NCBI GenBank assembly: GCA_963839475.1
Contig: CAWIVH010000018.1
Span: 9,012-73,011, forward strand
Direction: 5' to 3'
Source: an uncultured Acidobacteriota bacterium
Lineage (GTDB): Bacteria; Acidobacteriota; UBA6911
DNA length: 64,000 nucleotides
Both the position numbers and the translations under genes were made by a program. Shown here piece by piece: positions 24,038 to 58,696 of the stretch. The notes beneath the pieces are model-generated. The model worked only from the letters and a program-made list of their open reading frames with translations, had not been told where the DNA came from and searched no databases. Positions within the stretch are counted from its first letter, which is position 1. Each line of letters opens with the position of its first letter.

Positions 24038-27019
24038 TCATTTCACAATATTCACCGTAATCGCGGAGGACATGCCCCCAAGTTCCGCTGGGCCGGATTG
24101 AATCTGGGCGGCAATGCCCAGACTTCGATCGGCGGAGGACGGCACTTTGACTGGAAATCCGTCGAATGCCACTTCGATCTTTGTAGGATAGAGCAGAAGG
24201 TAAGGCCTCTTTGGCGAAGTCCCGGGGATATAGTTGAAATTCAGTCCGGATCCGGCGCCAGGGAGTTTGGTCACGATCATCTTGCCTTTGCCGGGATCAC
24301 GTTCATCATTTTTATAGGCCAGATACAGTTCGACTTTGTCTGCCGTCGTAGATCCTACACGCCAATCGTAATCCGATGACGGGTACCAATAGGAACCATA
24401 GTCTTTAAGCAACTTATAGGTGCCCACCACGGTACCGCCGGTCAGCCCGGAGAGGACACGATCGACGTTAAAAAAGTTGAGGCTGAAACCGATCATGGGC
24501 AAATCGAGGGCCTTCTGGTTGAACGTCACAGTAAAAGGAACCTCACTCCCGGCCGCGGTGCCGGGTAAAGCGAGGTCCACAACTGGACCGAATAGCACTC
24601 TCGAGATATATCCATTCCCTGGGCCGGAGCCGTTGTCGACCCGGATGGCTCCCTCAACCATGCCTTCAGGGACAATCACGGATAAACTGCCGGTGTCGAT
24701 TTGTATGGGATAGGCGATCTGGGTGGCGCCTTTGTCCATCGGGAAAATGATCTTCGGGTCGCTTCCGAAATGGGTCCCCTTAAGGGTTGCCAGGTCTCCC
24801 ACCGAGAGGAACACTGGCGAGATGGAGCTTATATTCGCTTTCGCCGTATCGGGCGCCACAAATGTTATCGGCTGGGTGCTTTTCCTTAGGACTTTCGGCG
24901 CCAAATAGTAGGCAATGCCCGAGACGGAGGCGTAGTCGACCGTAACGACGGATGTCCCCGGACTCGCCGGAGCAAGAACCAGATCCGGCAGCAAATAGAA
25001 ATCCAAATCGATTTTGGCACCTTCATTCCATTGCGAATTGAGAGCCTCCACATTGAATATCTCGAGAAGAAGTCCCCCGGAGTTCGCATTGCTGATCTTT
25101 CCGGAGAAAAGGTTCAATGTGCTCAAATTGTACGCCTGCAAAGTCGGGAAGTTGGCGACAGCCTGGAATTCAAGGGGCTCCGTTTTGGTCACTACCAGCT
25201 TCATCAGACCGCTGTCATCGATGCGTCCGCCGAGCAGGAGAGTGCCGTAGCCTATTTCTGCTCCCTGCTTGAATCCGGCGGATTGAAGCCTCAGGGCGGG
25301 CAAAGCCATTTTCACTGATCTTATGGCCAGGTCATTCTCCTTGAGATGCAGTTTCCACCGCATCGCGGTGGAGGTGCCCGCCAGGTTCTGGGCAAACTCG
25401 ATGGCCGAATCGGGAGCAAACCCGTGAACTTTGGACATTACCGGCACTGAAGTCAGCTTCTCATCGATAGATCGCAGCGTAAGCGCCGCGATTGGATAAT
25501 TGCTGGTCACTCGGATCGTACCTTCGAACTCGCCGATGGAGGCATAATCCGGAAACAGTTGGGTCATGAAAAGCGCCTGGTGGGTCGATGGCGCCAGCTT
25601 CATGCTCTCTTTCCGGCTGGCTACATAAAATCCATCCCTGTTATAAAGCTCGAAGTAAACGCTCGTCGTGGTTGTGGTGTTGGTGGGATAGGCAACGGCG
25701 ATGCCGGTGTCAAAAAAACCAATCGAATCGGCGATCAGGTTGAATTTGGTCATCAGGTCCGCCGATTTCACCCCGACCTCGGCCAGGGCCTGCCCCTGGG
25801 CATCGAATACGTGAAATATCGCGGCTCCGCTGATCGGCTGGTCCATGGTCACTCGGCTCCACCCTACTTTCGCGTCCCCTGTTCCACTGGTTACGAGTCT
25901 TGTGACCGCCCGGACAGCCAGATCAAAATCAAAGGATGCCGCCGTCTTTCCCCCCATCGTCACAAGCATCGGAGTGCCATCGGATTTGAACAGCTCAATC
26001 TTGCCGGTGGCGCGGCTCGCGGTGTTGTTGATCAGGATGATGGATGTCGCATATTTCAGCTTTCCCAGCAGGCCGTCCGCAATCTGAGGGAAAACCAGCA
26101 ATTTCGTATTATTCATCGCAGACGGCGGCGCCACCATGGGAAGAGAGGTAAACTGGTCCCCGTTCAGCCGCAGTGTGATGCCCGCGAACTTCTTCCCATC
26201 GATCGAGCTGACTATGAGGGAACCCTCGAAATTATTGATATTGGCAACCGCGGGGAAAAACTCGTTCAGGAAGCGGGCAACATGCCCTTTGGTGCTAAGT
26301 TTCTGCGATGTCTCTGTTATTTTGATACCTTTGTCATCCATCAGCTCCAAGCGAAGTTCGGCTGCCTCTGTTTCGTTCGGGTTTACCAGCGCCAGGCCGG
26401 TGTAGTTGTTGTTCTTGCTGTCGGCAAAAATGGTGAAGCTGGTCCCGAGAAGCGATTCCGCCACCCCTACATCGGTATATATCTTTCCGTGCACATCCCT
26501 GATTCCGAAGCTGGCCGTGCCGGCCAAAGGCTGATCGGTTTCAATCGAGGCCCAGCCGGTCTTCAACGACGCAGTGCCCGAAGTTGCCAGCCGCACCAGC
26601 CCTCCCGGATAGACCGTAATCGGAATGCTGGAGTCGGTCAGTTTGCCCACCGTGAGCTTTAAGGGCGCGCCGCTGTCGTCGTAAAACTTCAGGAATCCGG
26701 TTGCGGCATAGTCCGAGTCGTTCTCCAGAATAAAGGTGGTCTGGTAACTGCGGTTGGTGCCCGGCAGCGCCCCGTCGGCAACCTGCGCGAAGATCATCCG
26801 CACCGGCGAATTGCCGGCCTGATAGTCGACGGGAAGATTCCAGCGGGGCAGCGCCGATGATGGAGCGGCATGCTCCGGTTCGCCGCGTAAGATCCGGGCC
26901 AGTTCCTGGAATCCGTGCGCTTCCAGTTCCTGGACAGTACTTTCATAGGCCGTCAACAATCGCCGCTTGAGAACCTCTTGAGAAAGTTCCAGGCTGCCTG
27001 CCGTTGGAAGCAGACTCAA
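24038..27019 (-). CDS. Large secreted modular protein: about 6 copies of the recurring uncharacterised ~105-aa module (roughly nt 25440-26800), then a C-terminal beta-rich region with an IPT/TIG-like Ig domain
   Basis: Copies begin IFAQVADGALPG..YQTTFILEN, ..YTGLALVNPNETEAAELRLEL, VFPQIADGLLGKLKYATSIILINN and ..DTGIAVAYPTN, with ends ..AGITLRLNGDQFTSLPMV and ..ALTLRSIDEKLTSVPVM. IPT/TIG-like segment: ISSISPVFLSVGDLATLKGTHFG. Confidence 0.75.
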   Translation of the reverse strand: MSLLPTAGSLELSQEVLKRRLLTAYESTVQELEAHGFQELARILRGEPEHAAPSSALPRWNLPVDYQAGNSPVRMIFAQVADGALPGTNRSYQTTFILENDSDYAATGFLKFYDDSGAPLKLTVGKLTDSSIPITVYPGGLVRLATSGTASLKTGWASIETDQPLAGTASFGIRDVHGKIYTDVGVAESLLGTSFTIFADSKNNNYTGLALVNPNETEAAELRLELMDDKGIKITETSQKLSTKGHVARFLNEFFPAVANINNFEGSLIVSSIDGKKFAGITLRLNGDQFTSLPMVAPPSAMNNTKLLVFPQIADGLLGKLKYATSIILINNTASRATGKIELFKSDGTPMLVTMGGKTAASFDFDLAVRAVTRLVTSGTGDAKVGWSRVTMDQPISGAAIFHVFDAQGQALAEVGVKSADLMTKFNLIADSIGFFDTGIAVAYPTNTTTTTSVYFELYNRDGFYVASRKESMKLAPSTHQALFMTQLFPDYASIGEFEGTIRVTSNYPIAALTLRSIDEKLTSVPVMSKVHGFAPDSAIEFAQNLAGTSTAMRWKLHLKENDLAIRSVKMALPALRLQSAGFKQGAEIGYGTLLLGGRIDDSGLMKLVVTKTEPLEFQAVANFPTLQAYNLSTLNLFSGKISNANSGGLLLEIFNVEALNSQWNEGAKIDLDFYLLPDLVLAPASPGTSVVTVDYASVSGIAYYLAPKVLRKSTQPITFVAPDTAKANISSISPVFLSVGDLATLKGTHFGSDPKIIFPMDKGATQIAYPIQIDTGSLSVIVPEGMVEGAIRVDNGSGPGNGYISRVLFGPVVDLALPGTAAGSEVPFTVTFNQKALDLPMIGFSLNFFNVDRVLSGLTGGTVVGTYKLLKDYGSYWYPSSDYDWRVGSTTADKVELYLAYKNDERDPGKGKMIVTKLPGAGSGLNFNYIPGTSPKRPYLLLYPTKIEVAFDGFPVKVPSSADRSLGIAAQIQSGPAELGGMSSAITVNIVK

Positions 27020-34974: not shown

Positions 34975-35925
34975 TTAGATTTTCGGCCGTCCAATCCAGG
35001 AATATTGCCACGCCGCGCTGAGGTTGTGGAAATTGCCACCGAACCTGATATAAGTGCCCCTGCTGTAGCTCACCTTGACGGACTGATGACGGCTCAAGGG
35101 AACTGAGCCAGTCGCTCCCAGCCGCGAATTGCTCTGAAGGGTTACGGGATTTTCCACTCCATTCAGGCTGGTTTTGCCCCCGAACCAGAAGTTGGCATCA
35201 AACGACAGCCAAAGCCTTGCTTTCACGTCATAGCTAAAGTGACTCTCAAAAGCTGCGATCGGCTTCTGGGTTTGAACCTGGACGTAGGGAACATATTGAT
35301 TCCGAGAGAAGAACTCCGGATTATGGGTGTAGAACCAAACGCCGGCATAGGCGTCCAGGATCCAATGCCCCCTTCTCTTCGAGTAACCGAATTCAGGCTT
35401 GAATCCCCATCGGTTTCCGCCCAGGTTGATCAGTTTCTGGGGATCGTATTGCCCGGTTGGAGCCATCACCTTCAGACTCACCCCGAGCACGGTCTTCTGC
35501 TGGTATTTCATGAAATCCCGGATTTCCATCGCCGGTCCGCCCTTCAGATTCACGGCCAGACGGTACACCGTATCAAACATGCCGGAACGGTAGACGTTGG
35601 TCTCCGTCCCCAGGACATTCCCCTTGAAGTTGGCTACGCCATAGGGCAACGAGGCAGTGAAATTGGCGGAGCGGCCGAAGAATCTGAACGAGTGATAAAG
35701 GCTGAGGATGGGCGCATTGGCTCTCGCGGTCGCATCGGTGATGGGCACAGCACCGTTGAACATCAGGTTCCCGTCAAAGAAAGAATTCGATATGACGATC
35801 GCATTGCTGTGGATGGGGGTGATCACGTAAGCACGGGGCGTAAGATCTTGTCCCAGGCAAGCCGTGCAGCATAACAGCAATCCCAGCATCCAGACGGCCG
35901 GCCTCAGTTGAATCGTGTCACTCAT
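34975..35925 (-). CDS. Outer-membrane beta-barrel of the MetA-pathway / phenol-degradation-like 'transporter' family
   Basis: Signal peptide MSDTIQLRPAVWMLGLLLCCTACLG after RBS ggaggg. Alternating amphipathic strands. Terminal aromatic ..YSWIGRPKI. Confidence 0.6.
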   Translation of the reverse strand: MSDTIQLRPAVWMLGLLLCCTACLGQDLTPRAYVITPIHSNAIVISNSFFDGNLMFNGAVPITDATARANAPILSLYHSFRFFGRSANFTASLPYGVANFKGNVLGTETNVYRSGMFDTVYRLAVNLKGGPAMEIRDFMKYQQKTVLGVSLKVMAPTGQYDPQKLINLGGNRWGFKPEFGYSKRRGHWILDAYAGVWFYTHNPEFFSRNQYVPYVQVQTQKPIAAFESHFSYDVKARLWLSFDANFWFGGKTSLNGVENPVTLQSNSRLGATGSVPLSRHQSVKVSYSRGTYIRFGGNFHNLSAAWQYSWIGRPKI

Positions 35926-36268
35926 TCTCCCTCCAGTGCGGACATGATCCGCCTCCTTGCACAGATCCTCGGCCTCCCACCCTCCCCTGATACTGAAGTC
36001 GAAAAAGACCACCGCCCGTTGGGATAAGGAGTCCTTTACGAATTTTTCGCCAGGCAAATGAAAGGGCGCTACGGTCGCACAGTGTACTCCAACCCAGCCA
36101 GAATATCACCCATCGAGCTGAGGAAAGGGGTTCATCATATTCAAAAGTCTTCCAAGCTCAAGGAGTTGGCCGGGAAGATCTGGGCAGTACCGAGACCTGC
36201 TCATTGAGGAAGCCAAAATCCTGTCGCTTTGATCTGAACCAGGCTTCTGAGGCGCTGCCGGCGGGCAG

Positions 36269-38317
36269 CTAGCGCGCCCAGAGTCGCTCAAATTCCGCTT
36301 TATAGTTCTGGATCGTTGTAGATCCCGTTAAAAAAAGGGCATTTTCATAATTGGAGCTTTCAGCCGAGGCCGACCAGTTGTAGCTGCCTGTAAACAATAC
36401 CCTGGAATCCAGAAGCATGAATTTATTGTGCATTATCCCGCCCGCGATGCCGGTCATCCGCTTCAAATCAAAGCCCAGTCCTTCGAGGGTCGTAATCTCG
36501 CTTCCCGAGCCCTCTGCCTGGCTGTTATCGGCAATGATCCGAATAGTCACTCCGCGATTCCTGGCGGCGATAAGGGCATCCCGTGTTGCATCAGCCGTAA
36601 AGCTGTAGATAGCAATATCAATGTTCGATTGAGCTTTGTTGATTTCCGCTATCAGGCGGTCGCGAACCCCTCCATTGGGCGAAAACAAAGCGGTCGCTCC
36701 GGCCGGAACGTACCCAGATTGGTTTGCGGATACCGTCGAAAAAACGGAGGTGGAATGGTACCGCAGGACTGTTGCCGCCAGGTACCCGGATGCAAGGCTA
36801 ATCTCCACCCTTCCCGTTGGGGCTCCGCTCCCGAAAACCTGCGAAAGAAAAGCAGCCGTGTGGCTTCCCGGGGGGAGCTTGATCGGGGAGACACCGAACT
36901 CTGAACCGTCCTTCCGAAGCAACCTTATCGTTCCATTCGCCTCCAGGCTCCCGGGATTGGCAAGGGCAAATCCGGTTTGGAAGTCGCGATCTTCATCCGC
37001 GAAGAAATCGATCTTTGACACTGGCAGAATTCCGGGAACCGAAGCCTCTGAAAACAAGGTCCGTCCTTTGTATAGCTGGAAAACTGCGTTCCCGCCCAAA
37101 TCGATAAAAGGGGCGGAGGTCACGCGAACCCATCCTGTCGCGACGGAAGCCGCCGATCCCGAGGTGGATACTTTGGTAGAGCCGCGCGCCGGAACAAACA
37201 CCTCCTTCGTAGCCGAATTCACGCCATCCACAGCAATACTCAGCGGCTCCCCTGAATCCGAAAAAAAAGAAAGCGTCGCATGCGTGGCTGTGTCGGTGGG
37301 ATTCGTGAGCAGGAAGTCCGATACATAGCCGCCGCCATCGGCAAATTGTGGGAAGACGAAATTGGCTTGGACCTCCGCAGCGGCAGCACGCGCGACTGGA
37401 ACAGTCATGATCGCGGCCGCTTTCCGACCCTGGTCGTCGATCACCGCCACGGGTATCGGCTTCGCGCCGGTCGGAAGAGAGTCCGGCACACTATATTGGA
37501 AGGAAAATTTCAAATCGCCGGCTCTCTCATCGCCTTGAGTTCCATCATCATAAAACCGCTGGATGAGCGGGCCATTCAACGATGAAAGATCACCCGACAC
37601 AGTGATTCCGGTGCTTGCAGGATTCGCCCCTGGAACGACGGTCGCGATCATCAGAACGCTTCCGCCGGGTGTTACCGGAGCCGGCTTCACAATGGCAGTT
37701 ATTGTCGGATTCGTTGAGGGGAATGTTCCCGTGCTGTTGCGCGGATTGGGCGGTCCAGTCGTGAAGTCCTGAGCATTGTTGTCGGTGTCGGTTGTTCCGC
37801 CGTTTACCCGGAACAATGCAGTCGTGTTGGACAAGGAAGGAGCAGGACTACCTTCTGAACAGTTGGCGCCGCCATAGCCGACAAGGTCGACAACTCCGGA
37901 CGGACATCCGCCCGCCAGGGCCGAACTATTGCTGGTGAGGGCAACCTTGCCGGCGCTGGAACCCAAAGCCAGCATGCCCCTGGCATCAGGCACCGGAAGG
38001 TCGACCGTGCCACCTGCCCCTTGGGCCTCTTCAATCAAAAAATATCGGCCCGGCAGGAGGGTGCCGGTTAGAGGCGTGGCCTCCCAGGTCGTGCCGCCGG
38101 CTGATGAATATTGGACGGCCCAGCCTGCAAGATCCACGGGGGTTGTGCCGCGGTTATAGAGCTCAATAAAATCGTTCTTATAGCTGGCGCCGGAGTTGCC
38201 GCCGCCACCGTAAACTTGGCTGATGACGATGCTGGGAGATGCCGAAAACGACGGCAAGGCGCGCGCGGCTAAGACAGCCGCGACGATCAGAGTAACCCTG
38301 CTGCATGCGCGAAGCAT
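36269..38317 (-). CDS. Secreted nuclease-like protein: lamin-tail domain (LTD), Ig-like linker, one two-lobed copy of the recurring uncharacterised module (~nt 36757-37417), and a C-terminal PLD-family HKD (Nuc-like) domain
   Basis: LTD: ISQVYGGGGNSGASYKNDFIELYNRGTTPVDLAGWAVQYSSAGGTTW. Module: NFVFPQFADGGGYVSDFLLTNP..GWVRV.. then FQTGFALANPG..LAATVLRYHSTSVFSTV. HKD: HNKFMLLDSRVLFTGSYNWS (HxKx4Dx6GSxN). Signal peptide MLRACSRVTLIVAAVLAARA. Confidence 0.8.
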   Translation of the reverse strand: MLRACSRVTLIVAAVLAARALPSFSASPSIVISQVYGGGGNSGASYKNDFIELYNRGTTPVDLAGWAVQYSSAGGTTWEATPLTGTLLPGRYFLIEEAQGAGGTVDLPVPDARGMLALGSSAGKVALTSNSSALAGGCPSGVVDLVGYGGANCSEGSPAPSLSNTTALFRVNGGTTDTDNNAQDFTTGPPNPRNSTGTFPSTNPTITAIVKPAPVTPGGSVLMIATVVPGANPASTGITVSGDLSSLNGPLIQRFYDDGTQGDERAGDLKFSFQYSVPDSLPTGAKPIPVAVIDDQGRKAAAIMTVPVARAAAAEVQANFVFPQFADGGGYVSDFLLTNPTDTATHATLSFFSDSGEPLSIAVDGVNSATKEVFVPARGSTKVSTSGSAASVATGWVRVTSAPFIDLGGNAVFQLYKGRTLFSEASVPGILPVSKIDFFADEDRDFQTGFALANPGSLEANGTIRLLRKDGSEFGVSPIKLPPGSHTAAFLSQVFGSGAPTGRVEISLASGYLAATVLRYHSTSVFSTVSANQSGYVPAGATALFSPNGGVRDRLIAEINKAQSNIDIAIYSFTADATRDALIAARNRGVTIRIIADNSQAEGSGSEITTLEGLGFDLKRMTGIAGGIMHNKFMLLDSRVLFTGSYNWSASAESSNYENALFLTGSTTIQNYKAEFERLWAR

Positions 38318-38398
38318 AAAACCTCATATCAAAAGGATTCAGCAAACTTCAATCTGCGAGAGTTTGCCCGGGTGGATGGCAAGGGGGGCCCGGCCGAA

Positions 38399-39502
38399 TT
38401 ACCTCCAGGATTGCTGTGCCAATTCCTCCAGGTCGATCAGGGCTACGGTTTCATGGGTGCGCCCCGTATGAAACTGCACATAACGGCCCATCCTGTCGAA
38501 CGACGGGTGGGCGTGGACCCGGATCTGGTCGCGCAATCCCGTGGCCAGAAGCTTTTCATTGCCGGTTTTTGTTTCGATCAGCCACAATCGGCCCTGCGCG
38601 TCGTCCGCGACCAGGAACTTTCCATCATGCCGGGCGGCCAGGTGCCAGTAATTCCCTTCTTTTACCATGCGCGAGGAGCCGTTGATATTCACCAGCATCA
38701 GACCTTGCTTGTCATTGATCATAGTCATTTCGCCGGTTCCGGGGACCCAGGCTTCGTGTGTCACCCATTCTTTTAGTGGGGTGAACCACTCCTTGGGATC
38801 GGTTCGAGCATAAAAAGGGCGGTTGCCGGTTCCGTCGGAATGGATCAGCCATGTTCTTTGGGGAGCGAAGCCCCCGGTTTCCCATACATAAAAAATCAGC
38901 GGCTCCGATGGATGATGCTGCACATGGCCGATGCGGAAACCCTGTGAAGTGACTTTCCGATATGCACCGGTATCAACGCTAATCACCCCGATTTCCCAGT
39001 TGGATTCGTCGCGCTGCATGGACAACGTCAACCACTTGCCGTCGCCGCTTAAAGTCGGCTGGCCTCCGACGTTGACAAACGGCGGCGGCACGGAGCCGAT
39101 CTTCCGCTCAGAAAAATCGACGATATCCAGGGCAATCACGTCGGCCTCACGGGTATAGTAAATCCTTCGAGCGTTGGTGTGATCCGGACAGGCGCTTGCG
39201 GCATTGGTCTTGGGGTCATCGGTAAGCTGCACCAGGCTGCCCGTCCCGATTTCGGTGCGGAAGATCTGCTTGGAACCGGTCCGGTCCGAAGTGAAGATCA
39301 GATAGCGATTGTCCGCCGTGAAGTTGGAAAAGTGAAAATAGAGATTATCTGCAGCACTGCCGTTGCCTGTCAGTTCCAGAATGCGAACTCCCGTGAGAGG
39401 ATCGAGGTATGACTTCTGCTCGCTGCCCCAGTCTTTTCCGACGTTGCGGGCAGGGTGATCCGACACACAAAGCGCCAGTAGCACAATTGCCATTCGTAAC
39501 AT
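38399..39502 (-). CDS. Oligogalacturonide lyase (PL22)-like beta-propeller protein
   Basis: N-terminal family pattern YLDPLTGVRILELTG..NLYFHFSNFTADNRYLIFTSDRTGSKQIFRTEIGTGSLVQLTDDPK. Signal peptide present. Confidence 0.7.
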   Translation of the reverse strand: MLRMAIVLLALCVSDHPARNVGKDWGSEQKSYLDPLTGVRILELTGNGSAADNLYFHFSNFTADNRYLIFTSDRTGSKQIFRTEIGTGSLVQLTDDPKTNAASACPDHTNARRIYYTREADVIALDIVDFSERKIGSVPPPFVNVGGQPTLSGDGKWLTLSMQRDESNWEIGVISVDTGAYRKVTSQGFRIGHVQHHPSEPLIFYVWETGGFAPQRTWLIHSDGTGNRPFYARTDPKEWFTPLKEWVTHEAWVPGTGEMTMINDKQGLMLVNINGSSRMVKEGNYWHLAARHDGKFLVADDAQGRLWLIETKTGNEKLLATGLRDQIRVHAHPSFDRMGRYVQFHTGRTHETVALIDLEELAQQSWR

Positions 39503-39522
39503 TCGCGGCTCCCATCATAGGC

Positions 39523-40716
39523 TTACCATTGATATTGAGGGATCTTCATCCATTCACCATCCTTCAGTGCAGACTGGTGCGCCACGATCCCGGGAACAGT
39601 CATGTTGAGCGCCGTCACGACATCCACCATCGGCCGGCGGTTTTCCAGTATCGAGGAAACGAACTCATTCATGAGGTACCCGTGAGAGCCGCCGTGCCCG
39701 CCAGGCAGAACTCCCGCAGGAAGAGGCGGACGGCGGACTTCAGGCAGGGTCTTTTCAAGGCCTTGGTACCGGTCTTTGAAGGATCCCTTCTGGCCGCGAA
39801 TCCGCCCCATCTCCCCCTCGTGTCCGGGAGTGTCCCAGCTAACGGCCATTCGCGACGCCCCCCCCTCGCTGGTGCGCAGTAGTGCGATCTCGGTGCCAAA
39901 AGCATTTCGGTAGCGATTGTTCGATGGCTGAAGGTGTGCGATGCGGCTGGCCTGTGCCAAACAGGAGACCTCGGTGAAGCTTCCGCCGCTGACACCGACA
40001 TAATAGGCGTTCGAATGAGTCGGATACCACTGAGGCGGCAAACCGACGCGCCACTCCTGATAGGAAGGTATCGGATTTTCCATGTAATGGAAGTACTCTC
40101 CCTCGGAATAGGCGAGCCGGCCGAAACCGCCCGCATCGTAAATCCGTCGCATGGCATACAGGTCTTCCCGAAAACAAGAGGTTTCGAACATCATGTAGTG
40201 GAGTCCGCTCTTCCTGACCGCCTCCATCAACCGGTCGGCCTGCTCAAGGGAGCCGAAGACGGCCGGGACCGCTGAGGCCACGTGCTTCCCGTGCGCAAGC
40301 ACCTCGATGCAGTGTCGCGCATGGCTGGGAGCATCCGTGGCAACGAACACCGCCTCAATCTTCGGGTCCTTGACCAGTTCCTCGAGGGAGGGATAGGTTT
40401 TCGGGCACCGGACCGCCTTGGCCAACTCCGCGCATCGGTCGGGGAGCAGGTCGCTGACCGCGACGATTTCGACATTGGGGTGGTGCTGGAAACTGAAGTC
40501 GGCACCGAAGCGGCTGTAGCCGTATCCGACGATGCCAACTCGGATTCTGCGATCGGAAACCGGATTCCGCTCTTTCTGGATTCCTGCGGAAACCGGAGAT
40601 TTCTCTTCGCCCTGCGGCGGCTTTTGCTGGGCAGGGGCCGGTCGGGACAATCCTACGACAACGGCTCCGAACCCGACATTTTTCAGGAATGACCGACGTG
40701 CAGCGGAATCGACCAT
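39523..40716 (-). CDS. Gfo/Idh/MocA-family NAD(P)-dependent oxidoreductase with a TAT signal
   Basis: MVDSAARRSFLKNVGFGAVVVGL (twin-Arg). RVGIVGYGYSRFG Rossmann motif. Confidence 0.85.
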   Translation of the reverse strand: MVDSAARRSFLKNVGFGAVVVGLSRPAPAQQKPPQGEEKSPVSAGIQKERNPVSDRRIRVGIVGYGYSRFGADFSFQHHPNVEIVAVSDLLPDRCAELAKAVRCPKTYPSLEELVKDPKIEAVFVATDAPSHARHCIEVLAHGKHVASAVPAVFGSLEQADRLMEAVRKSGLHYMMFETSCFREDLYAMRRIYDAGGFGRLAYSEGEYFHYMENPIPSYQEWRVGLPPQWYPTHSNAYYVGVSGGSFTEVSCLAQASRIAHLQPSNNRYRNAFGTEIALLRTSEGGASRMAVSWDTPGHEGEMGRIRGQKGSFKDRYQGLEKTLPEVRRPPLPAGVLPGGHGGSHGYLMNEFVSSILENRRPMVDVVTALNMTVPGIVAHQSALKDGEWMKIPQYQW

Positions 40717-45083: not shown

Positions 45084-45389
45084 CCGAGCAAAAAAAATCG
45101 TGGAGAGCCAGAAAAAATAGGGAATTTGAATTGGATGGTCTTTGCCGAGCTTGATTTCAGCGTGTCCACAGCAGCCTGCCCCTGCCGCATCCAATATTTG
45201 CAGATTGAACCCATCGCCTGATCCAACCCGATTTGCGGACTGACAGCAGAGAAGCGCAGTGTGTCTGCTGTCACAAACTACTGTAACCCGATCGCTCCGC
45301 ATTCACGACATATTGTCCTAGAACAGGAAAAACCAGCATCGAGAGGTGCTGCGAAAAAAAAGGTTTTCCTTACTGAGGAGGAATGTCCT

Positions 45390-48116
45390 ATGCGTCAGCC
45401 CAATCAACGGTGTGGAGTCCCAGCGGCGCTGATGAATTTGAAAAATCTCGCGGCACTGCTCTTTGCATTCTGTTTCCTGGTCAGCGGCGTTTGTGCCCAG
45501 AACCGTTACTACATGCCGCAAATTGCTAACGGTCGCGACAGCGCCGGAACTTACAAGACAACATTCGTTCTAAATAACAATTCTGCCACCAAAGCCACCG
45601 CTACCTTGCAGCTTTCCGATGATAACGGCAACCCGCTGGCAATAACGATTGGCGGGAATTCCGACAGCCGCTTTGTCATTCAAATGCCCGCCGGAGGAAC
45701 TCAACTACTCCAGACCGACGGCCTGGGAAGCCTGGCAAGCGGCGCCGCCAAAATTGATTCAACGGCGGCCATCGGAGTTTCATCCATTCTCAGCATTTAT
45801 GATTCGAACGGGAACTGCAGAGCCGAAACAGGGATTGGTAGCTCCGAACCAATGTCCAGTTTCGTGTTTCCTGTGGATACAACGGGCGCATTCAATACCG
45901 GTCTGGCGCTTTACAACATAAATGATTCCAGTGTCACTGTGACGATGACCTTGCGCAGCACAACCGGACAGCAGGCTGCTTCGCCGGTAGTACTGACGAT
46001 GGCTGCGCATCGCCACTTCGCAAGATTCGTTTCCGGTGCCGGGCAACTCTTCCCGCAGATAACAAATTTCCAGGGCACACTGTTGGTCCAATGCTCCGAA
46101 CCCATTGCTTCATCGGTGTTGCGGCAAAATACCACGCCGCTTTCCTATACGTCCCTTTCCGGGATATCGACAGCATCGACGCAGAAAATAATGAATCTTG
46201 CTCAAGTGGCCAATGGTTCCTTTGGAAGCGGGGGATATAAAACCTCATTCCTCATTTTCAATATTTCCGCGGTCCCGGCCAACCTGACCCTGAGCCTGAC
46301 GAATGACAGAGGCAGACCATGGAAGGTGCCCATTACTGGTCGGGGGGAAGACGACAAGTTCACAATCTCCAACCTGGCGTCGGGCGCTTCCCTGTTCCTC
46401 CAGACTGAGGGTTCCGGCGAATTGACAACCGGCGGAGCCACGATAACCTCCGATGTCCCGGTGGGAGTTTCCGGCATCTACACACTTGTGGACTCCCGGG
46501 GATCCTTTCAAACTGAAACGGGGGTTGGATGCTCGCCAACCCTGACATCGCTGACCCTTCCCGTCAGCATTTCGGGCAGCTTCGACACCGGTGTCGCCTT
46601 TTTCGGGGTGAGCGGCTCCAATGCCGCGCTCACCTTCCGTCTGCGGGATGCCGGCGGAATGCCTGTCGGACAGAGCATTTCAGGGAATCTGCCTGCAAGC
46701 GGCCATATGGGAGTTTTCGTATCCCAACTTTTCAACGGCATAGAAAATTTCAAAGGATCGCTTTCCGTTTCTTCAACCACAGGCATAGCGGCGCTCACCT
46801 TGCGCGTGAACACTTCCCCGATTTCCTTTACCACCTTTCCGGTCACGGCGGGAATCCCGAGTTCAGCCGGCGGCGCCAGATTCACCATTGCAGAAACCAT
46901 CTCAGATCAGGCTCAGAGCACAACCCTCGCCTTCTCGGGCCTGGCGATGATGACCGGTAACCTCGAAGCTCAGTCCTTTTTCCCGCCGGGCAAAGTGGCC
47001 GACTACACCGGTTTTCAGTATCTGCGCGACAATGATCCCGACAATATGGGCCACAACACCAGCTTCCTCACCCGCATCGCCAACAACGTGATCTTCCTCT
47101 TGGACGACAGCCAGTTTGCCAAACTGAAGACTCTGGCCATCGCACAGCTCCAGCAGATCGACCTGTACGGGTATAAGCGCTTCCCCCTGATGAAGGCCTT
47201 CCGCAGGGTTATGAACAGTGAAATCCCTGCCGGGTCGGCCGGATTGAACCTGAACGCCGTAAAAAAGGCCTCACGGGAGCTCTATATCCTGGACGGCCAG
47301 ATCAGCTATGACCGAGCCGTGCTCTATGCCGCCATAATCCGGTCCCTGGACAGCACTCAAAAAGCCTACCTGGACGCGATGAAGGGCAAAGGCTGGAACT
47401 CCTGGCCTGATATCTCCGAAGCTCAGGTTCAAACCAGGATGAGGAGCCTGCCCCAGGGCACTGCCGTTGCGGTGATGACCTATGCCAGCGACCTGTTCAG
47501 TTGGTATGCGGGCTCCGTCGAAGCTGACGTCTACTTCTGCCCCGAGCGCCAGGGAACCTACTATGGCTCTTTTTATATCAAGGATGCTCCTGCCATCGGC
47601 CATGAAGGATACGGCATCAATGAGCAACTGACAGCCACGGCCGGGTCTGCACTTTGCGACAGCAAGCAAGGCTATGTAACGGAAGCTCAGGCAGCCACAA
47701 TGACGAGCCTGGTAGACAGACAGAGAAACAATCTCTACGCCTCCACAACCTCGAATATCGTCTCGGTCCGGACGGAAATCGCCACATTGCTGCGTGACTT
47801 GCTCACCACGACGAGCTCACCCGACACGATCAAAGCCAAGGTCCTGGCACTATCGGGAACTTACGGCGATCTGGACGGCGAAAACAATTATTACTACGCC
47901 AGCGTTTTCGCCCAAGTCTACAAAACGCTGAGCACGGAGCAGAAGACCAAGCTGGCAGGCCTGCGAAAATCGATCATGTCCGGGACGTACTCCGACGGCA
48001 CTGCCTTTGATTTTTCCACTTGCTCCACCCCATTCCTCTATTCCAGCGTCATCACGGATGTCAGCCAGCTGGCACCCTATTTGAGCAATACTGACTTTCT
48101 ATTTTTCGAGCCCTAA
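45390..48116 (+). CDS. Large secreted protein: N-terminal array of about 5 copies of the recurring uncharacterised module (~nt 45510-46870), then a ~420-aa C-terminal domain of unknown function (largely alpha-helical by composition)
   Basis: Signal peptide MRQPNQRCGVPAALMNLKNLAALLFAFCFLVSGVCAQ after RBS ggagga. Copies begin YYMPQIANGRDSAGTYKTTFVLNNN, ..NTGLALYNINDSS.., LAQVANGSFGSGGYKTSFLIFNIS and ..DTGVAFFGVSGS.., with ends ..SVLRQNTTPLSYTSLSG and ..ALTLRVNTSPISFTTFPV. Confidence 0.75.
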   Translation: MRQPNQRCGVPAALMNLKNLAALLFAFCFLVSGVCAQNRYYMPQIANGRDSAGTYKTTFVLNNNSATKATATLQLSDDNGNPLAITIGGNSDSRFVIQMPAGGTQLLQTDGLGSLASGAAKIDSTAAIGVSSILSIYDSNGNCRAETGIGSSEPMSSFVFPVDTTGAFNTGLALYNINDSSVTVTMTLRSTTGQQAASPVVLTMAAHRHFARFVSGAGQLFPQITNFQGTLLVQCSEPIASSVLRQNTTPLSYTSLSGISTASTQKIMNLAQVANGSFGSGGYKTSFLIFNISAVPANLTLSLTNDRGRPWKVPITGRGEDDKFTISNLASGASLFLQTEGSGELTTGGATITSDVPVGVSGIYTLVDSRGSFQTETGVGCSPTLTSLTLPVSISGSFDTGVAFFGVSGSNAALTFRLRDAGGMPVGQSISGNLPASGHMGVFVSQLFNGIENFKGSLSVSSTTGIAALTLRVNTSPISFTTFPVTAGIPSSAGGARFTIAETISDQAQSTTLAFSGLAMMTGNLEAQSFFPPGKVADYTGFQYLRDNDPDNMGHNTSFLTRIANNVIFLLDDSQFAKLKTLAIAQLQQIDLYGYKRFPLMKAFRRVMNSEIPAGSAGLNLNAVKKASRELYILDGQISYDRAVLYAAIIRSLDSTQKAYLDAMKGKGWNSWPDISEAQVQTRMRSLPQGTAVAVMTYASDLFSWYAGSVEADVYFCPERQGTYYGSFYIKDAPAIGHEGYGINEQLTATAGSALCDSKQGYVTEAQAATMTSLVDRQRNNLYASTTSNIVSVRTEIATLLRDLLTTTSSPDTIKAKVLALSGTYGDLDGENNYYYASVFAQVYKTLSTEQKTKLAGLRKSIMSGTYSDGTAFDFSTCSTPFLYSSVITDVSQLAPYLSNTDFLFFEP

Positions 48117-49782: not shown

Positions 49783-49991
49783 ATCAATCCATCATCCGGC
49801 GGAGCATAAACAGTCTATTCTCTCCACCTGGCATTGCCGGGGGACGCCAACCCATACCGGGGAGCGCGGACCCGAGGGTGGAACTCTGCCGAGGCAACCG
49901 ATTGTGAAATCTTATGAAGCACGAGGATAGACCGCCAACTCGGGCCATCCTCATGCCCGAGCATCCACGCTCTCGAAGGAGGCCAAGGGAA

Positions 49992-52900
49992 ATGCGATCC
50001 TTTACCGCATGCGTTATCGTCACTCTGTCTTTGATTGGATTTTACGGGAGTTCGCCCGCTCAGACCGCTGCGGGTCCGTCCATGGTTTTCATTCCTGCCG
50101 GTTCATTCAGCATGGGCGACCACCACAATTATGTGGATCCCGCACACCCGAGCGATGAAACACCGCTTCATACTGTCAGCATCAACGCTTTATACGCGGG
50201 GAAATACGACATTACGGTCCAGCAATACTGCGATTACCTCAACTCAGCCATATCGCAGGGATTGATTCGTGTGACGAGCGGCATCGTGTATGCATCGGGT
50301 GGAAGCGATGTTTTCTTCCAGACCCGCCAGGCCGACCAATACAGCCGCATCGATTGGGATGGCAGCCGGTTTTCGGCACTCGACGGGCGCGGCAATCACC
50401 CGGTTACCAGCGTGCTTTGGCACGGAGCCGCAGCCTACTCCAACTGGCTCAGCGCGCAGCAGGGTTATCAGGCCTGCTACAACACTTCGACCTGGGCATG
50501 TGACTTCACCAGGAACGGCTACCGCCTGCCCACAGAGGCCGAGTGGGAATACGCCGCCCGCGGGGGCCAATATAATCCCTATTACAACTTCCCTTGGGGT
50601 AACGACATAACGATGTCGAAGGCGAACTTCCCCGGCTCAGGGGATCCCTATGAATCCGGCGCCCTCCCCAACACCACCCCCGTCGGATTCTATAATGGGG
50701 AACTGCGTCGCAAATCCGACTTCAATTGGCCGGGCAGCCAGGAAACCTATCAAACGTCGGACGGTTCTAACGGTTTCGGCCTCTACGACATGGCGGGCAA
50801 CGTCTGGCAGTGGTGCAACGACTGGTATGGGCAAAGCTACTACGCTTCGAGCCCGTCCTCCAATCCGACCGGGCCTACGACCGGAACCCCCATGCCGGAC
50901 GGCAAGCCCTATCGCGTCCTGAGAGGCGGAAACTGGTATAACGGCGACGGTCTGGATCCGGGGCATGCGCGCGTTTCCAACCGGGATCCCGCATATTATC
51001 GGGGACCACAGGATCCCAACCACCCTTATTACCATGTGGGATTCCGCGTGGTAAGAAGTAATGTAACCGCCAGCACAACTACAAGCACTCAAACGGTGGG
51101 CCTGTTCGTCAATGACTCCAGAGCCTGGGAAGGTTACACCCTCATCGCCCCCAAGCATTACGGTAGCACTTACCTGATCAACAACCAGGGCAGGCTCGTT
51201 CATTCCTGGTCGGGCAGCAAATACGAGCCGGGACAGTCGGTCTACCTTCTGGAGAACGGCAACCTGCTGCGCGCATGCATGGTCAAAGGCCAGTTAAGTT
51301 CCGGAGGAGGCGAGGGCGGACGGGTTGAGGAATACGATTGGGACGGGAACCTGGTGTGGCAGCTGGATTACTCCACCAGCCAATACACCCAGCACCACGA
51401 CATCAAACCGCTTCCCAACGGCAACATCCTGATGCTGGTCGTGGAAAAGAAAACCTACGATGAGGCGATTGCCGCAGGGTTCGACCCGAGCAAGTTCCAG
51501 TCGCAGATCCAGCAGCAGGGATATATGCTCCCCGACTCGGTCATAGAAATTAAACCGACAAGGCCGTCGGGGGGAACCGTTGTCTGGTCGTGGCATGTTT
51601 GGGACCACCTGATCCAGGACTACGCATCATCCAAAGCGAATTACGGCAGTGTGGCAGCCCACCCTGAACTGATCAATCCGGCTGCCGACGGGGGGCAGAT
51701 CCCTTCCTTCTGGAACCACATGAATGCGATCTACTACAACGCAGCCTTCGACCAGATTATGCTCAGCGTCCGGGGAAACAGCGAAATCTGGGTCATCGAT
51801 CACAGCACCACCGATGCGGAAGCTGCGGGACATTCAGGAGGAAAATATGGGAAGGGGGGAGACCTGCTATACCGATGGGGCAATCCGATCATGTATCGCG
51901 CCGGCACGAAAAGCGATCAGAAGCTCTTCCAGCAGCACGACGCCCAATGGATAGACGCCGGATACCCCGGCGCCGGAAATATCCTGGTATTCAACAACGG
52001 GCTCGGTCGCAACTATTCCACTATTGACGAATTCACTCCGCCGGTCGACTCCAAAGGGAATTATTCCTATACCAGCGGTTCGGCGTTCGGCCCCAAAGAT
52101 TTCGCCTGGACCTACAAGGCAAACCCTCCGGCCTCACTTTATGCCGAGGCGATCTCGGGAGCACAACGGCTGCCGAATGGAAATACACTGATCACCGATG
52201 GCACACACGGGACATTCATAGAGGTTACCGCCGGCGGGGAGACGGTCTGGAAATATGTCAATCCTGTCGTACTCACCGGCCCGCTGGCGCAATCGGCCAC
52301 AATACCCGCTGACCCGGCACGAGCCGGCGAATTCATGAACGCCGTGTTCCGTGTCCGCCGATATTCCCCGAATTACGCCGGGCTTGTAGGCCGCACTCTG
52401 ACTCCCGTCGGAACCATCGAACTGAAAGGCTACAGCAACACCAACTATTTCCCCCACGTCGCCTCCGACGGCACATGGGAAACCGAAATAGCACTCATCA
52501 ATACCAGCGCCGATCAGACAGTCACCGGGATCTGGAGACCGTTTACCAATGACGGCCGCCAGCTGGACACACAGCAGATCTCCCTGGCTCCGCGATCAAG
52601 ACGCGAGATCATTATCGGCAGCGCATTGGCAAATGCAAAGTTGACCGGGTATGCCCTCTTTGAAGCGGATTCGGCTTCTTTAGCCGGCTATACCAAGTTT
52701 TATGTGCCGGGGAAATACCGGACCGCGGTTCCGTCCATTTCGACCGCAAGTTCGGGAAATCTCTTTCTGTCTCATATCGCTTCAGACGACCTCTGGTGGA
52801 CCGGAATGAGCCTGGTCAATACCACTCAGTCGAGCAAGACGGTGACGATTCAATTCGACAACGGCGAATCCCGGACCGTCACGATAGGCGCCTTATCCCA

Positions 52901-55847: not shown

Positions 55848-58696
55848 AGAAACGCACCCTGATTCCCCAGCTTCTGGCTCTGTGGTCCGGCATAACCGCC
55901 CTTTCATGGCTGCTTGCAGCATCCGACATCTTCATAGATACGGAGCTATTGGGCCGTCCGACAGGCACCTCCATTACGGTCAATGCCCTCGCCCGCAAGG
56001 ATCTCGAAGTTTATTTTGAATACGGACCATCGACCGGCAGTTATGTTCTCCAGACCGATACGAATAAATATCCTGCAGAAACCCCGATAGAGGCTGTAAT
56101 GGACAGGCTCGAGCCTGATAAGCAGTATTACTACCGGATGCGCTATCGAGAAACCGGAGCCACGGTTTTTTCAGCCGGGGAAGAACACTCCTTTCATACC
56201 CAGAGGCCACGCGGCAGCACATTCACTGTCGCCATTGAAGCCGACCCGCACATGGATGAAAACTCCGATCCGGAAACCTACCGTCTGACGATGCAGAACG
56301 TGCTCTCGGAAAAACCGGACTTCCAGATCGACCTGGGCGACACCTTCATGTCCGACAAACTTTCCCAGCCCACTTATAAGGCGGTCCAGGACCGTGCGCT
56401 CCTTCTCCGATCGTATTACGATATCAATGGGCATTCGGTCCCGCTGTTCCTGACCCTGGGAAACCACGAAGGTGAATGGGGGAGCCGCTTGACCAACTCG
56501 GCGGAAAACCTGCCGGTGTGGGACACGCTGATCCGGAAACTTTACTATCCCAACCCCTTCCCGGACGGATTTTATAGCGGCGGCAGCAGGGAGGAAAAAT
56601 ATGTGGGATTGCGCGAGAGTTACTACGCGTGGGAATGGGGTGACGCGCTCTTTGTGGTCCTGGATCCTTATTGGTACACGGTGCAATCGCCGGATTTGAG
56701 CGGGGACTGGTCGCTTACTCTGGGCCGTGAGCAGTATGCGTGGCTGAAAGCGACTCTGGAAGGCAGCCGAGCAACTTTCAAGTTCGTTTTTTGCCACAAC
56801 CTTGTAGGTGGATGGAACAAAAACGGCACGGGCCCCATGCGCGGTGGAGTTGAGGCGGCCAAATACCTGGAATGGGGCGGCTACAACCTGGACGACACCT
56901 GGGGCTTCGACAAGGCTCGCCCTGGCTGGGCGATGCCGATACATAAGCTGCTGGCCGCCAACAATGTGACCATCTTCTTCCATGGCCACGACCATGTCTA
57001 TGCGAAGCAGGATCTGGATGGGATCGTTTATCACGAGATTCCGCAGCCCAGCGCAAGAAATACCGAATTGGGCAATCGGGCGGCTTCTTATGGCTATACC
57101 CAGGGCAAGCTCCTGGGCGGAACCGGTCATCTGCGCATGCGCGTGTCCCCCAGCGAAGTAACGGTGGATTATGTCCAGACCTGGACACCTCAAAATGAAA
57201 CAGGCAGCCGGAAAAACGGACTGGTCGCGGACTCCTATACGATTGCTGCAAAAAACCGGACCAAGGCAAACCTGTCCGTTGCTGGCGGAGGTGCGGCAGA
57301 CACCGCCACCGCCGGCGCAGCCTCCCCGCTCCAGTCAGGCTACGCAACCACGGCCATCGCCTCCGGCAGTGCGCCTTACGGAAACGCCGTCTTCAGCTTC
57401 GCACGCAATGGAACCACCGTAAGCGAAGCCGCCGTTCCCGCTTCACCGCCCGCTTCCGCCTCCAGGATCTTCGTCGACTGCGCCCTCCGTGTCGCTTCCG
57501 GCCCCGAACGCCTCCGCACCGCGCCCGTCGACATCTATACCGGAATCGCCGTCGTCAACCCCGGCTCCGCCGCCGCCAACATAACCTACACCCTGCGCAG
57601 CCTCGACGCTGAACCCCTTTCCGTCGGACACGGCACCCTTGCCGCAGGCGCACAGCGCGCCCGATTCCTTCACCAGCTCCAGGACCTCGCCCCGGATTTC
57701 ACACTCCCGCCCGGCTTCGCCTCCACTACACGCTTCGGCTCGCTCGAAATCTCCTCCGATCAGCCGCTTTCCATCGCCGCCCTCCGCATGACCGTCAACC
57801 AGCGCGACGATTCCCTCTTTACCACCGTGCCCGTCGCCGACCTCTCCCGCTTGCCTTCTTCCTCCACCGTCTTCTTCCCCCATGTCGCCGACGGAGACGG
57901 CTACGTCTCCACCTTCATTCTCCTCAACACCTCCAGCTCGCCTCAAACCGGCCTCCTGCGCTTCCTTACCGATACCGGCTCGCCACTCACCATTCACCAG
58001 GTAGGCGGTACTGCTGACTCCTCTTTCCGCTACAGCATTCCTCCCGCCGGCACATTCCTCTTCCAGACCGACGGCTTCTCCACTTCCCTGCTCTCCGGCT
58101 CTCTCCAACTCATCCCCGACTCGGGCTCCACTTCCCCCGTCGGCGCCGGCATCTTCAGCAGAACCAGCAACGGCTTCCTCGTCACCGAATCCGGTATCCC
58201 CTCAGCTTCGCCCGGCACTCACGCCCGCATCCATGTCGACATGACCAACGGCCATGATTCGGGACTCGCGATCGCCTCCACCTCTTCGTCCGACCTCCCC
58301 GTCACCCTCCGCGCCTTTCAGAGCGACGGCTCGACCGCCGCGGGATCCCAGGCCATTACCCTCACCGTCCCCGGCAACGGCCATACAGCCGCTTTCGTCC
58401 GCCAGTGGATCTCAGGATTGCCCGCCGATTTCAAAGGCGTGCTCGATATCTCCGCCCCCGCTCCCTTTGCCGCCCTTACCCTGCGCGCCCTCACCAACTC
58501 GAGGCAGGATTTCCTCATCACCACCTTCCCGATCGCCGACTGGACCCGACCGGCACCGGCCCCTGTACTCTTCCCCCACCTCGCTGATGGCGACGGATAC
58601 AAAACCGAATTCATCCTCCTCAGCGCCGGCGACCCCGCCGCCGCTACCCTCAGCTTTTTCGGACAGGATGGATCCCCCCTCGCCGTGGGGAAGTAA
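55844..58696 (+). CDS. Secreted calcineurin-like metallophosphoesterase (PhoD/purple-acid-phosphatase-like) fused to ~4.4 C-terminal copies of the recurring uncharacterised module. The last copy is truncated after ..PLAVGK.
   Basis: Phosphoesterase motifs DLGDTFMSD, LTLGNHEG, CHNLVGG and FHGHDHVYAK. Signal peptide MKKRTLIPQLLALWSGITALSWLLAA after RBS gggaga. Module copies include VFFPHVADGDGYVSTFILLNTSS and VLFPHLADGDGYKTEFILLSAG, with ends ..IAALRMTVNQRDDSLFTTVPVAD and ..ALTLRALTNSRQDFLITTFPIAD. Confidence 0.8.
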   Translation: MKKRTLIPQLLALWSGITALSWLLAASDIFIDTELLGRPTGTSITVNALARKDLEVYFEYGPSTGSYVLQTDTNKYPAETPIEAVMDRLEPDKQYYYRMRYRETGATVFSAGEEHSFHTQRPRGSTFTVAIEADPHMDENSDPETYRLTMQNVLSEKPDFQIDLGDTFMSDKLSQPTYKAVQDRALLLRSYYDINGHSVPLFLTLGNHEGEWGSRLTNSAENLPVWDTLIRKLYYPNPFPDGFYSGGSREEKYVGLRESYYAWEWGDALFVVLDPYWYTVQSPDLSGDWSLTLGREQYAWLKATLEGSRATFKFVFCHNLVGGWNKNGTGPMRGGVEAAKYLEWGGYNLDDTWGFDKARPGWAMPIHKLLAANNVTIFFHGHDHVYAKQDLDGIVYHEIPQPSARNTELGNRAASYGYTQGKLLGGTGHLRMRVSPSEVTVDYVQTWTPQNETGSRKNGLVADSYTIAAKNRTKANLSVAGGGAADTATAGAASPLQSGYATTAIASGSAPYGNAVFSFARNGTTVSEAAVPASPPASASRIFVDCALRVASGPERLRTAPVDIYTGIAVVNPGSAAANITYTLRSLDAEPLSVGHGTLAAGAQRARFLHQLQDLAPDFTLPPGFASTTRFGSLEISSDQPLSIAALRMTVNQRDDSLFTTVPVADLSRLPSSSTVFFPHVADGDGYVSTFILLNTSSSPQTGLLRFLTDTGSPLTIHQVGGTADSSFRYSIPPAGTFLFQTDGFSTSLLSGSLQLIPDSGSTSPVGAGIFSRTSNGFLVTESGIPSASPGTHARIHVDMTNGHDSGLAIASTSSSDLPVTLRAFQSDGSTAAGSQAITLTVPGNGHTAAFVRQWISGLPADFKGVLDISAPAPFAALTLRALTNSRQDFLITTFPIADWTRPAPAPVLFPHLADGDGYKTEFILLSAGDPAAATLSFFGQDGSPLAVGK

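Follow-up and report, generated by a model that had tools for sequence, protein, structure and literature searches.

An exported protein of an uncultured Acidobacteriota bacterium joining a lamin-tail domain, a recurring two-lobed module and a single-HKD PLD domain: a candidate nuclease

Soils and sediments hold a major pool of phosphorus, nitrogen and carbon in the form of extracellular DNA, and the Acidobacteriota are dominant, poorly characterised soil bacteria. A 64,000-nucleotide stretch of DNA from an uncultured member of this phylum (assembly GCA_963839475.1, contig CAWIVH010000018.1, positions 9,012 to 73,011; hereafter, the window) carries a gene whose product had been described, from the letters alone, as a secreted protein in which a lamin-tail domain (LTD) and a single-HKD domain of the phospholipase D (PLD) family are joined through one copy of a novel module that recurs in the window. 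This locus raises the question of whether such a protein exists as described, what it is likely to do once it has left the cytoplasm, and what the module that lies between its two recognisable domains may contribute.

Domain architecture and export

The gene is an ATG-to-stop open reading frame (ORF) of 682 amino acids that spans exactly positions 36269-38317 on the minus strand of the window. Because an identical protein (P0001), carried on a 940,781-bp contig, is present in NCBI/ENA/Logan, and because nine homologues (P0002-P0010) share its domains at 47-66% identity, with most or all of the query covered (at least 97% in six of them), we conclude that the gene is real and conserved; one homologue has been auto-annotated 'PLD-like domain/Lamin Tail Domain'. 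The domain order is signal peptide, LTD, immunoglobulin (Ig)-like domain, one two-lobed module and single-HKD PLD domain (Table 1). Both peptides quoted in the sequence-only reading are present, ELYNRGTTPVDLAGWAVQY at residues 52-70 and HNKFMLLD..GSYNWS at residues 630-649, and the LTD, the module and the PLD domain that it distinguished are all there; its count of three regions fell short by one, the Ig-like domain at about residues 200-310 having been missed. By its defining sequence features the protein is a member of both the PLD superfamily and the LTD-containing proteins. The architecture is a new combination of familiar domains with one widespread, unstudied domain and not a new kind of system, and a literature search found no paper describing the LTD-PLD combination.

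Inspection of the N-terminus revealed two Arg residues followed by a hydrophobic core, with a Kyte-Doolittle 10-residue maximum of 2.94 at residue 8, and small residues at positions -1 and -3 of the probable cleavage site (LPSFS/ASPS). The AlphaFold2 (AF2) model places a helix at residues 2-20, within this signal peptide, and an equivalent signal-peptide-like N-terminus was found in all 15 aligned family members. The earlier description of the protein as secreted holds to the extent that these N-termini indicate export across the inner membrane; periplasmic and extracellular destinations are not distinguishable, as no C-terminal sorting or anchor sequence follows the PLD domain, which ends the protein.

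The LTD matched Pfam PF00932 over residues 25-117 with 57.7 bits (cut-off, 34.3; E 1.8e-15), a match that spans only the first part of the LTD region. That this is a genuine LTD, as had been claimed, and not a generic Ig fold is borne out by this score, which lies above the gathering threshold, and by the N-terminus of P0039, a protein with two LTDs, an EEP domain and a dockerin that carries the JGI name 'predicted extracellular nuclease'. Residues 1-310 of the window protein, comprising the signal peptide, the LTD and the Ig-like domain, are 49% identical to the N-terminus of P0039, and the LTD region is 49-56% identical to the P0039 LTDs, which themselves score 109.6 bits; P0033 has a similar layout. 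The Cys138/Cys153 pair and the C-terminal 'TDTDNNAQDF' stretch of the LTD are kept in P0039 and in all seven LTD-bearing homologues, and the conservation of the Cys pair fits an extracytoplasmic protein. The Ig-like region, modelled by AF2 as beta-strands with predicted local distance difference test (pLDDT) values mostly of about 70-80, aligns with the equivalent region of P0039, and its residues 255-268 gave a sub-threshold match to the NCBIfam choice-of-anchor X model (16.6 bits; cut-off, 25).

A candidate nuclease and the alternatives

The C-terminal part of the protein matched PLDc_2 (PF13091) at residues 555-680 with 101 bits (cut-off, 27; E 6e-29), covering profile positions 1-132 of 132. 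The single-HKD domain proposed earlier is confirmed by this match and by canonical motif spacing: the HKD motif, which occurs once per chain, corresponds exactly to the published definition HxK(x)4D(x)6GSxN (PMC5714352). The active-site positions H, K, D, G, S, N and E are intact in 14 of the 15 family members. The last of these, E658, lies at +28 from the catalytic His, is likewise conserved in 14 of 15 members, and aligns with the Glu of the NRENVL segment in Zucchini; in Nuc, the additional active-site Glu at about this distance from the catalytic His is E122.

When the PDB was searched by sequence, the PLD domain best matched Zucchini/MitoPLD of mouse and fly (6e-17), followed by Nuc (3.7e-14) and NucT (2.6e-11), and the top Foldseek hits were again Zucchini (9e-9), NucT and Nuc, with probability 1.00 and template modelling (TM) scores of 0.65-0.73 normalised to the target. 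The fold search with the full-length model was informative for the PLD domain only; matches of the beta-rich part to SGBP-B, TEP1 and complement were discarded as unrelated tandem beta-sandwich proteins with long alignments of high root-mean-square deviation (rmsd). With the isolated PLD domain as the query, the closest homologues were stand-alone single-HKD proteins of 140-250 aa, one of which is named 'phospholipase D family nuclease' by NCBI. The best NCBIfam models were NucT equivalogs (2e-17).

Nuc of plasmid pKM101 from Salmonella typhimurium (PDB 1byr) and NucT of Helicobacter pylori (PDB 6ehi) are exported single-HKD endonucleases, and the window protein has in common with them one HKD motif of identical spacing, a compact alpha/beta PLD domain of about 140 aa and an N-terminal signal peptide. 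It differs from them in size and layout: Nuc and NucT consist of a single domain and have about 155-180 aa, whereas the window protein has 682 aa, of which the PLD domain occupies the C-terminal fifth, after the LTD, the Ig-like domain and the module, and identity to them is only about 26-30%. Zucchini/MitoPLD (PLD6), a eukaryotic single-HKD endonuclease of single-stranded RNA, is the best match in both sequence and fold, and its HKD region aligns with that of the window protein residue for residue; by contrast, it acts at the mitochondrial surface in piRNA biogenesis and has neither an LTD nor the module. The alignment with Drosophila Zucchini splits in two at the HKD region, consistent with an extra Zucchini segment that is absent here.

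Considering that LTDs accompany exported nucleases of several folds, we interpreted the window protein as an exported nuclease. That LTD-nuclease fusions act outside the cell, as had been assumed for this protein, is documented: ExeM of Shewanella oneidensis, which combines an LTD with OB and EEP domains, was experimentally shown to be an extracellular nuclease (PMC6085458). LTDs also occur on DNase I-type enzymes of halophiles (PMC4486849), on the thermonuclease-type Hvo_1477 and metallo-beta-lactamase-type ComA-like proteins (PMC5118699), and on a large nuclease protein of DNA-degrading Izemoplasmatales (PMC8289736). The window protein shares with ExeM an N-terminus in which an LTD comes after the signal peptide of an exported, nuclease-type protein. 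The catalytic folds, however, are unrelated, that of ExeM being metal-dependent and EEP/DNase I-like and that of the window protein being PLD/HKD and expected to be metal-independent, and the window protein lacks both the OB-fold DNA-binding regions and the C-terminal hydrophobic region of ExeM. The ExeM type is defined by an LTD, an OB-fold, an EEP catalytic domain and a GlyGly-CTERM anchor; the NCBIfam model for ExeM (NF033680) gave 19.6 bits against a cut-off of 1300, with only the N-terminal ~80 residues matching, and Pfam detected no EEP domain. Judged by these matches, the window protein resembles ExeM in layout and is not a member of its family.

By analogy with these enzymes, the protein is probably an exported, homodimeric, metal-independent nuclease of the Nuc/NucT type that acts on extracellular or periplasmic nucleic acids, a reading that we hold with moderate confidence. 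Single-HKD PLD enzymes dimerise and build one active site from two HKD motifs, and a phospho-histidine intermediate, a second His as the general acid and independence of metal ions are established features of the PLD family, NucT being assayed in EDTA buffer (PMC5714352). The dimerisation for activity that had been predicted earlier is what this knowledge would lead one to expect. On the basis of its sequence features, the Sec signal peptide would carry the protein across the inner membrane, and, by the family rule, the C-terminal single-HKD domains of two chains would pair so that their two HKD motifs form one active site. By homology, one His630 would attack the phosphodiester phosphorus to give a phospho-histidine intermediate and the second His630 would protonate the leaving group, while K632, S645, N647 and E658 would hold the phosphate; as for NucT, no metal ion should be needed. 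The likely substrate would be DNA or RNA outside the cytoplasm, cut into oligonucleotides either for nutrient scavenging or in the turnover of an extracellular-DNA matrix. The homodimer would be bivalent, with two arms of LTD, Ig-like domain and module, in which the LTD-Ig cassette may retain the enzyme on a polymeric substrate or on the cell envelope and the two-lobed module may serve as a non-catalytic beta-sandwich spacer or binding unit that is tightly coupled to the PLD domain.

Several observations weigh against the interpretation of the protein as an exported nuclease. The cut-off of the NucT equivalog models (NF010492 and its siblings) was not reached (63.3 versus 297 bits), and the PLD domain appears to be related to NucT at the level of the subfamily or domain, not as an orthologue. 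The AF2 model of the PLD domain is of low confidence (pLDDT about 35-80), which limits the Foldseek result and leaves the width and charge of the groove unreadable. With a pI of 5.8 the domain is mildly acidic, and the pI of the mature protein is 4.9, values of overall charge that would not be expected for a strongly DNA-binding surface. Deletion of the LTD of ExeM lowered activity in vitro and left the degradation of extracellular DNA in vivo unaffected (PMC6085458), and the role of bacterial LTDs is putative. The gene context is not conserved (see below) and thus does not tie the gene to nucleotide uptake or the Pho regulon. Activity, substrate and localisation are inferred for all members of the family.

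The main rival reading, which we consider unlikely, is an exported enzyme whose HKD domain cleaves a phosphodiester other than DNA or RNA. Phospholipid head groups, phosphodiester-linked exopolysaccharide or teichoic-acid-like polymers and small nucleotide-derived diesters are candidate substrates, and the beta-sandwich domains would then bind the polymer substrate. Lipid-active enzymes exist within the PLD superfamily, cardiolipin synthase models matched the domain weakly, many of its close homologues are named 'phosphatidylserine/phosphatidylglycerophosphate/cardiolipin synthase-like enzyme' by JGI, and the MitoPLD structure was deposited as 'mitochondrial cardiolipin hydrolase'; moreover, the catalytic domain is acidic, and the module also partners carbohydrate- and protein-active domains. 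However, the cardiolipin synthase matches reached E-values of 3e-4 and 6e-3 compared with 2e-17 for NucT, lipid PLDs and cardiolipin synthases normally have two HKD motifs whereas a single HKD of Nuc size is present here, and it is specifically with EEP-type nuclease proteins that the N-terminal cassette is shared. A different alternative retains the chemistry and changes the role, the protein being a DNase directed against the extracellular-DNA matrix of competitors or used to disperse the cell's own biofilm. The influence of ExeM on biofilm formation (PMC6085458) and the absence of conserved linkage to transporters or phosphate genes would suit such a role, which we nevertheless consider improbable: the neighbourhood of the gene in the window contains neither immunity or secretion-system genes nor a toxin-delivery domain, and nothing separates this role from scavenging.

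Two further readings are at odds with the features of the protein itself. It is very improbable that the protein is a pseudo-enzyme with a non-catalytic binding or adhesion function, like the PLD-like domains of FAM83/SACK1, because all of the HKD active-site positions are intact in the window protein and in 13 of its 14 aligned relatives and because PLDc_2 scored 101 bits where the Pfam SACK1 model, which does match the PLD region, scored 30.8; a paralogue without the catalytic His and Glu, P0087, is the other observation in favour of this reading. A cytoplasmic anti-phage nuclease of the DISARM DrmC, Dpd DpdK or Mokosh type is effectively refuted. PADLOC and NCBIfam models of DrmC, MkoC and DpdK did match the PLD domain, but the matches are limited to this generic domain and stay far below the equivalog cut-offs (DrmC, 42 versus 133 bits; DpdK, 13.8 versus 100) or, in PADLOC, at no more than 39.7 bits. 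The signal peptide, the conserved Cys pair and the extracellular-type domains argue against a cytoplasmic location, and no defence genes flank the gene in the window or the homologues that were examined.

Table 1. Features of the gene and module copies elsewhere in the window (i-E, independent E-value; HMM, hidden Markov model)
Feature	Position in window	Strand	Basis
Whole gene: exported LTD / Ig-like / two-lobed module / single-HKD PLD protein	36269..38317	(-)	ORF, homologues, Pfam
GAGG Shine-Dalgarno-like element, 4 nt upstream of ATG	38322..38325	(-)	by inspection of sequence
Signal peptide, residues 1-25 (MLRACSRVTLIVAAVLAARALPSFS), probable cleavage near S25/A26	38243..38317	(-)	by inspection
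LTD, residues ~27-195, conserved Cys138/Cys153 pair	37733..38239	(-)	Pfam PF00932
Ig-like beta-sandwich, residues ~200-310, with YDDGTQGDERAGDLKFSF loop	37388..37720	(-)	AF2 strands, co-alignment with P0039
Module lobe A, residues 316-429 (FPQFADGGGY...GWVRV...GNAVFQ)	37031..37372	(-)	HMM, tblastn, AF2
Module lobe B, residues 430-530 (FFADE..TGFALANPG...GRVEI)	36728..37030	(-)	HMM, AF2, profile-profile comparison
Linker between module and PLD domain, residues 531-544	36686..36727	(-)	conserved in module+PLD family
Single-HKD PLD-family (Nuc-like) catalytic domain, residues 545-682	36272..36685	(-)	Pfam, PDB matches, Foldseek
HKD motif H630-N-K632-FMLL-D637-SRVLFT-G644-S645-Y-N647	36377..36430	(-)	exact HxK(x)4D(x)6GSxN
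Stop codon	36269-36271	(-)	
Two module copies in ORF 24038-27019	25472..26800	(-)	hmmsearch i-E 4.7e-27, 4.3e-32; tblastn
Two module copies in ORF 45261-48116	45507..46847	(+)	hmmsearch i-E 2.1e-26, 3.7e-15
Weak module traces in FGE-sulfatase / arylsulfotransferase ORF	49914-53711	(+)	module HMM
About 2.5 module copies in Metallophos protein, ORF 55619-58696	57239..58687	(+)	hmmsearch i-E 4.4e-14, 2.1e-26, 3.4e-10

The recurring two-lobed module

The central module, at about residues 316-535, had been described as two-lobed and recurring, and both properties were recovered: HMM and tblastn searches matched it in four other large ORFs of the window (Table 1), and an AF2 model built from a 20-sequence alignment showed two all-beta sandwich lobes with a pLDDT of 93 and a predicted TM score of 0.88. 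Profile-profile comparison of lobe A with lobe B by hhalign gave a probability of 94.9% and an E-value of 4e-8, while direct BLAST of one lobe against the other found no significant match; because the two lobes are homologous, the module appears to be an internal duplication of a beta-sandwich of about 105 aa. That a single 64-kb window holds five module-bearing ORFs suggests that paralogues of such module-tagged secreted proteins have expanded greatly in this genome. When 1.84 billion representative proteins were searched exhaustively with HMMER, 3,778 clusters, counted at 50% identity, were retrieved at E <= 1e-3 and 1,570 at E <= 1e-10, whereas a word-indexed search with the module alone returned only 10 proteins, so that the family is visible only through the exhaustive search. 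In these HMMER matches the module is typically a unit of 200-220 aa, present in one to several copies and often C-terminal.

The module, called novel in the sequence-only reading, is captured by no Pfam model and covered by no solved structure, yet it is not wholly unknown. Lobe A matched Pfam DUF5719 (PF18986) with 23.4 bits, just below the cut-off of 26.2, over profile positions 50-127 of 319 (about 80 positions), and the same family was matched in 7 of 40 module-bearing relatives, with a best E-value of 5.9e-9; most module copies, including all the others in the window, gave no Pfam match. DUF5719, a family of unknown function of which a literature search found no mention, is the nearest described relative of the module, and these matches make it a remote relative at best. 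No fold match was found for the whole module, factor XIII and GH2 reaching TM scores of at most 0.26 normalised to the query with rmsd of 15-20 A, and a sequence-profile search of the PDB returned nothing below E 0.5. The sole confident structural match to a single lobe was TM1070 of Thermotoga maritima (PDB 1nc7; probability 1.00, TM 0.64-0.70 normalised to the target, rmsd 2.9-4.6 A), a structural-genomics beta-sandwich of unknown function that covers one lobe only, at 10-12% identity, with no sequence-profile match.

Conserved positions of the module are mainly Gly, Pro, Asn and hydrophobic residues, a pattern that points to a structural or binding domain rather than a catalytic one. In 40 sampled relatives its partners included PLD, LTD, beta-helix, cyclophilin, FGE-sulfatase, M64 and S8 peptidase, GDSL lipase, NHL and other propeller, and cohesin domains. 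This diversity marks the module as a promiscuous, general accessory domain of secreted proteins, and the earlier proposal that it marks a suite of enzymes for scavenging phosphate and nucleic acids proved too narrow, since proteases, lipases, an FGE-sulfatase and a cyclophilin are among the proteins that carry it. We tentatively suggest, as a possibility on the doubtful side, that the module, with its FPQxADGGGY sequence, is an undescribed and very large extracellular domain family that serves as a common tether or targeting handle for many unrelated exo-enzymes. The users of such a handle would be Acidobacteriota and possibly other environmental bacteria, and its targets would be, for example, their own envelope, exopolysaccharide or a common polymeric substrate.

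Across the module+PLD family the boundary between module and PLD domain is strongly conserved. In the alignment of 15 relatives an invariant triplet stands on either side of the linker, F526-S527-T528 closing lobe B and F545-S546-P547 opening the PLD domain; P534, inside the linker, is nearly invariant, and AF2 confidence is low in this segment. This conservation suggests that the module may act directly in substrate recognition by the nuclease; if so, it would be a new type of substrate-targeting module for a PLD nuclease. The module family, which is unannotated and has no solved structure, merits a Pfam entry.

The other module-bearing ORFs of the window differ in what accompanies the module. 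Those at 24038-27019 (minus strand) and 45261-48116 (plus strand), of 993 and 951 aa, respectively, have no Pfam domain outside their module copies, and the ORF at 55619-58696 (plus strand) matched Metallophos (PF00149) with 34.7 bits. In this Metallophos protein the copies look permuted: the first (aa 543-694) begins at model position 47, a full copy follows at aa 751-937, and a terminal orphan piece at aa 984-1025 corresponds to model positions 4-46 only; by inserting as a strand, this piece might complete the truncated first copy. The FGE-sulfatase/arylsulfotransferase ORF adjoins a sulfatase gene (53827-55518).

Distribution, gene context and implications

Alignment of the 15 relatives defined a conserved core of signal peptide, module and PLD domain. 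Seven proteins of about 390-420 aa (P0021, P0023, P0024, P0034, P0041, P0085 and P0087) consist of this core alone, with a module region 44-64% identical to that of the window protein, and N-terminal additions are variable: the window protein and P0002-P0010 have the LTD and the Ig-like domain, and P0018 has a long N-terminal region with Ig repeats. When 185,579 species-representative genomes, a set that excludes the window's own genome, were scanned, the combination of module and PLD domain was seen only in metagenome-assembled genomes (MAGs) of Acidobacteriota/Terriglobia (loci L002-L011), more distant hits being to the PLD domain alone. Judged by these nearest loci, the window's genome belongs to the same phylum and is Terriglobia-like. 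The simplest history suggested by these layouts is that an LTD-Ig cassette of the ExeM-like EEP type was joined to a pre-existing protein of module and PLD domain. In a Planctomycetia MAG (locus L055), two adjacent genes (5473-7032 and 7029-8531) combine PLDc_2 and LTD without the module, one with PLD followed by LTD and the other with LTD followed by two PLDc_2 domains. Because these genes combine the two domains independently, the fusion of LTD and PLD has arisen more than once.

Loss of activity may also have occurred within the family. P0087, encoded at L008:6001-7128 in the Acidobacteriota MAG MFD05942.bin.2.47, has the catalytic His replaced by Tyr and the +28 Glu by Gly with the remaining motif kept, and is probably a catalytically dead paralogue. 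At L009:6097-7178, in the Terriglobia MAG MFD04408.bin.2.106, the match to module and PLD domain is split into two segments that overlap at about residues 438-455, which suggests a frameshift, either in a pseudogene or through an assembly error; the same MAG also holds an intact copy, at L003, that encodes P0018.

Comparison by tblastn of the window ORFs between 27 and 49 kb with 11 related loci recovered the gene itself only, apart from a module cross-match and one weak unrelated hit, and the four homologue contexts with called genes had nothing in common. As conserved synteny was not found, functional inference from operons was dropped. A full-length orthologue of 54% identity lies at 6007-8079 in the Acidobacteriota MAG MFD00962.bin.2.24 (L002:2871-11112), where the next gene encodes an SNase homologue (8297-8944) and is followed by a SprT/HIT-domain gene, with a DUF3011/porin-like gene upstream; the SNase neighbour is supportive but anecdotal, as this context is not common to the other homologues. 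In the window, the neighbouring genes (34975-36057 and 38399-40716, both on the minus strand) include an outer-membrane beta-barrel protein of the MetA-pathway/phenol-degradation type, a PD40/oligogalacturonate-lyase-like propeller and a GFO/IDH/MocA oxidoreductase, none of which is conserved beside the homologues. A scan of positions 35900-38700 for promoters and terminators gave counts no higher than in shuffled sequences.

The gene family is a candidate for an exported, metal-independent nuclease, which should keep working in places where divalent cations are scarce or chelated. Such an enzyme does not overturn current understanding and would strike a specialist as plausible rather than surprising. 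With it, the PLD/HKD fold joins the EEP/DNase I, thermonuclease and metallo-beta-lactamase folds on the list of LTD fusions. The PLD fusion adds weight to the view that bacterial LTDs serve nucleic-acid-directed exo-enzymes, and it provides a simple system in which the role of the LTD may be probed.

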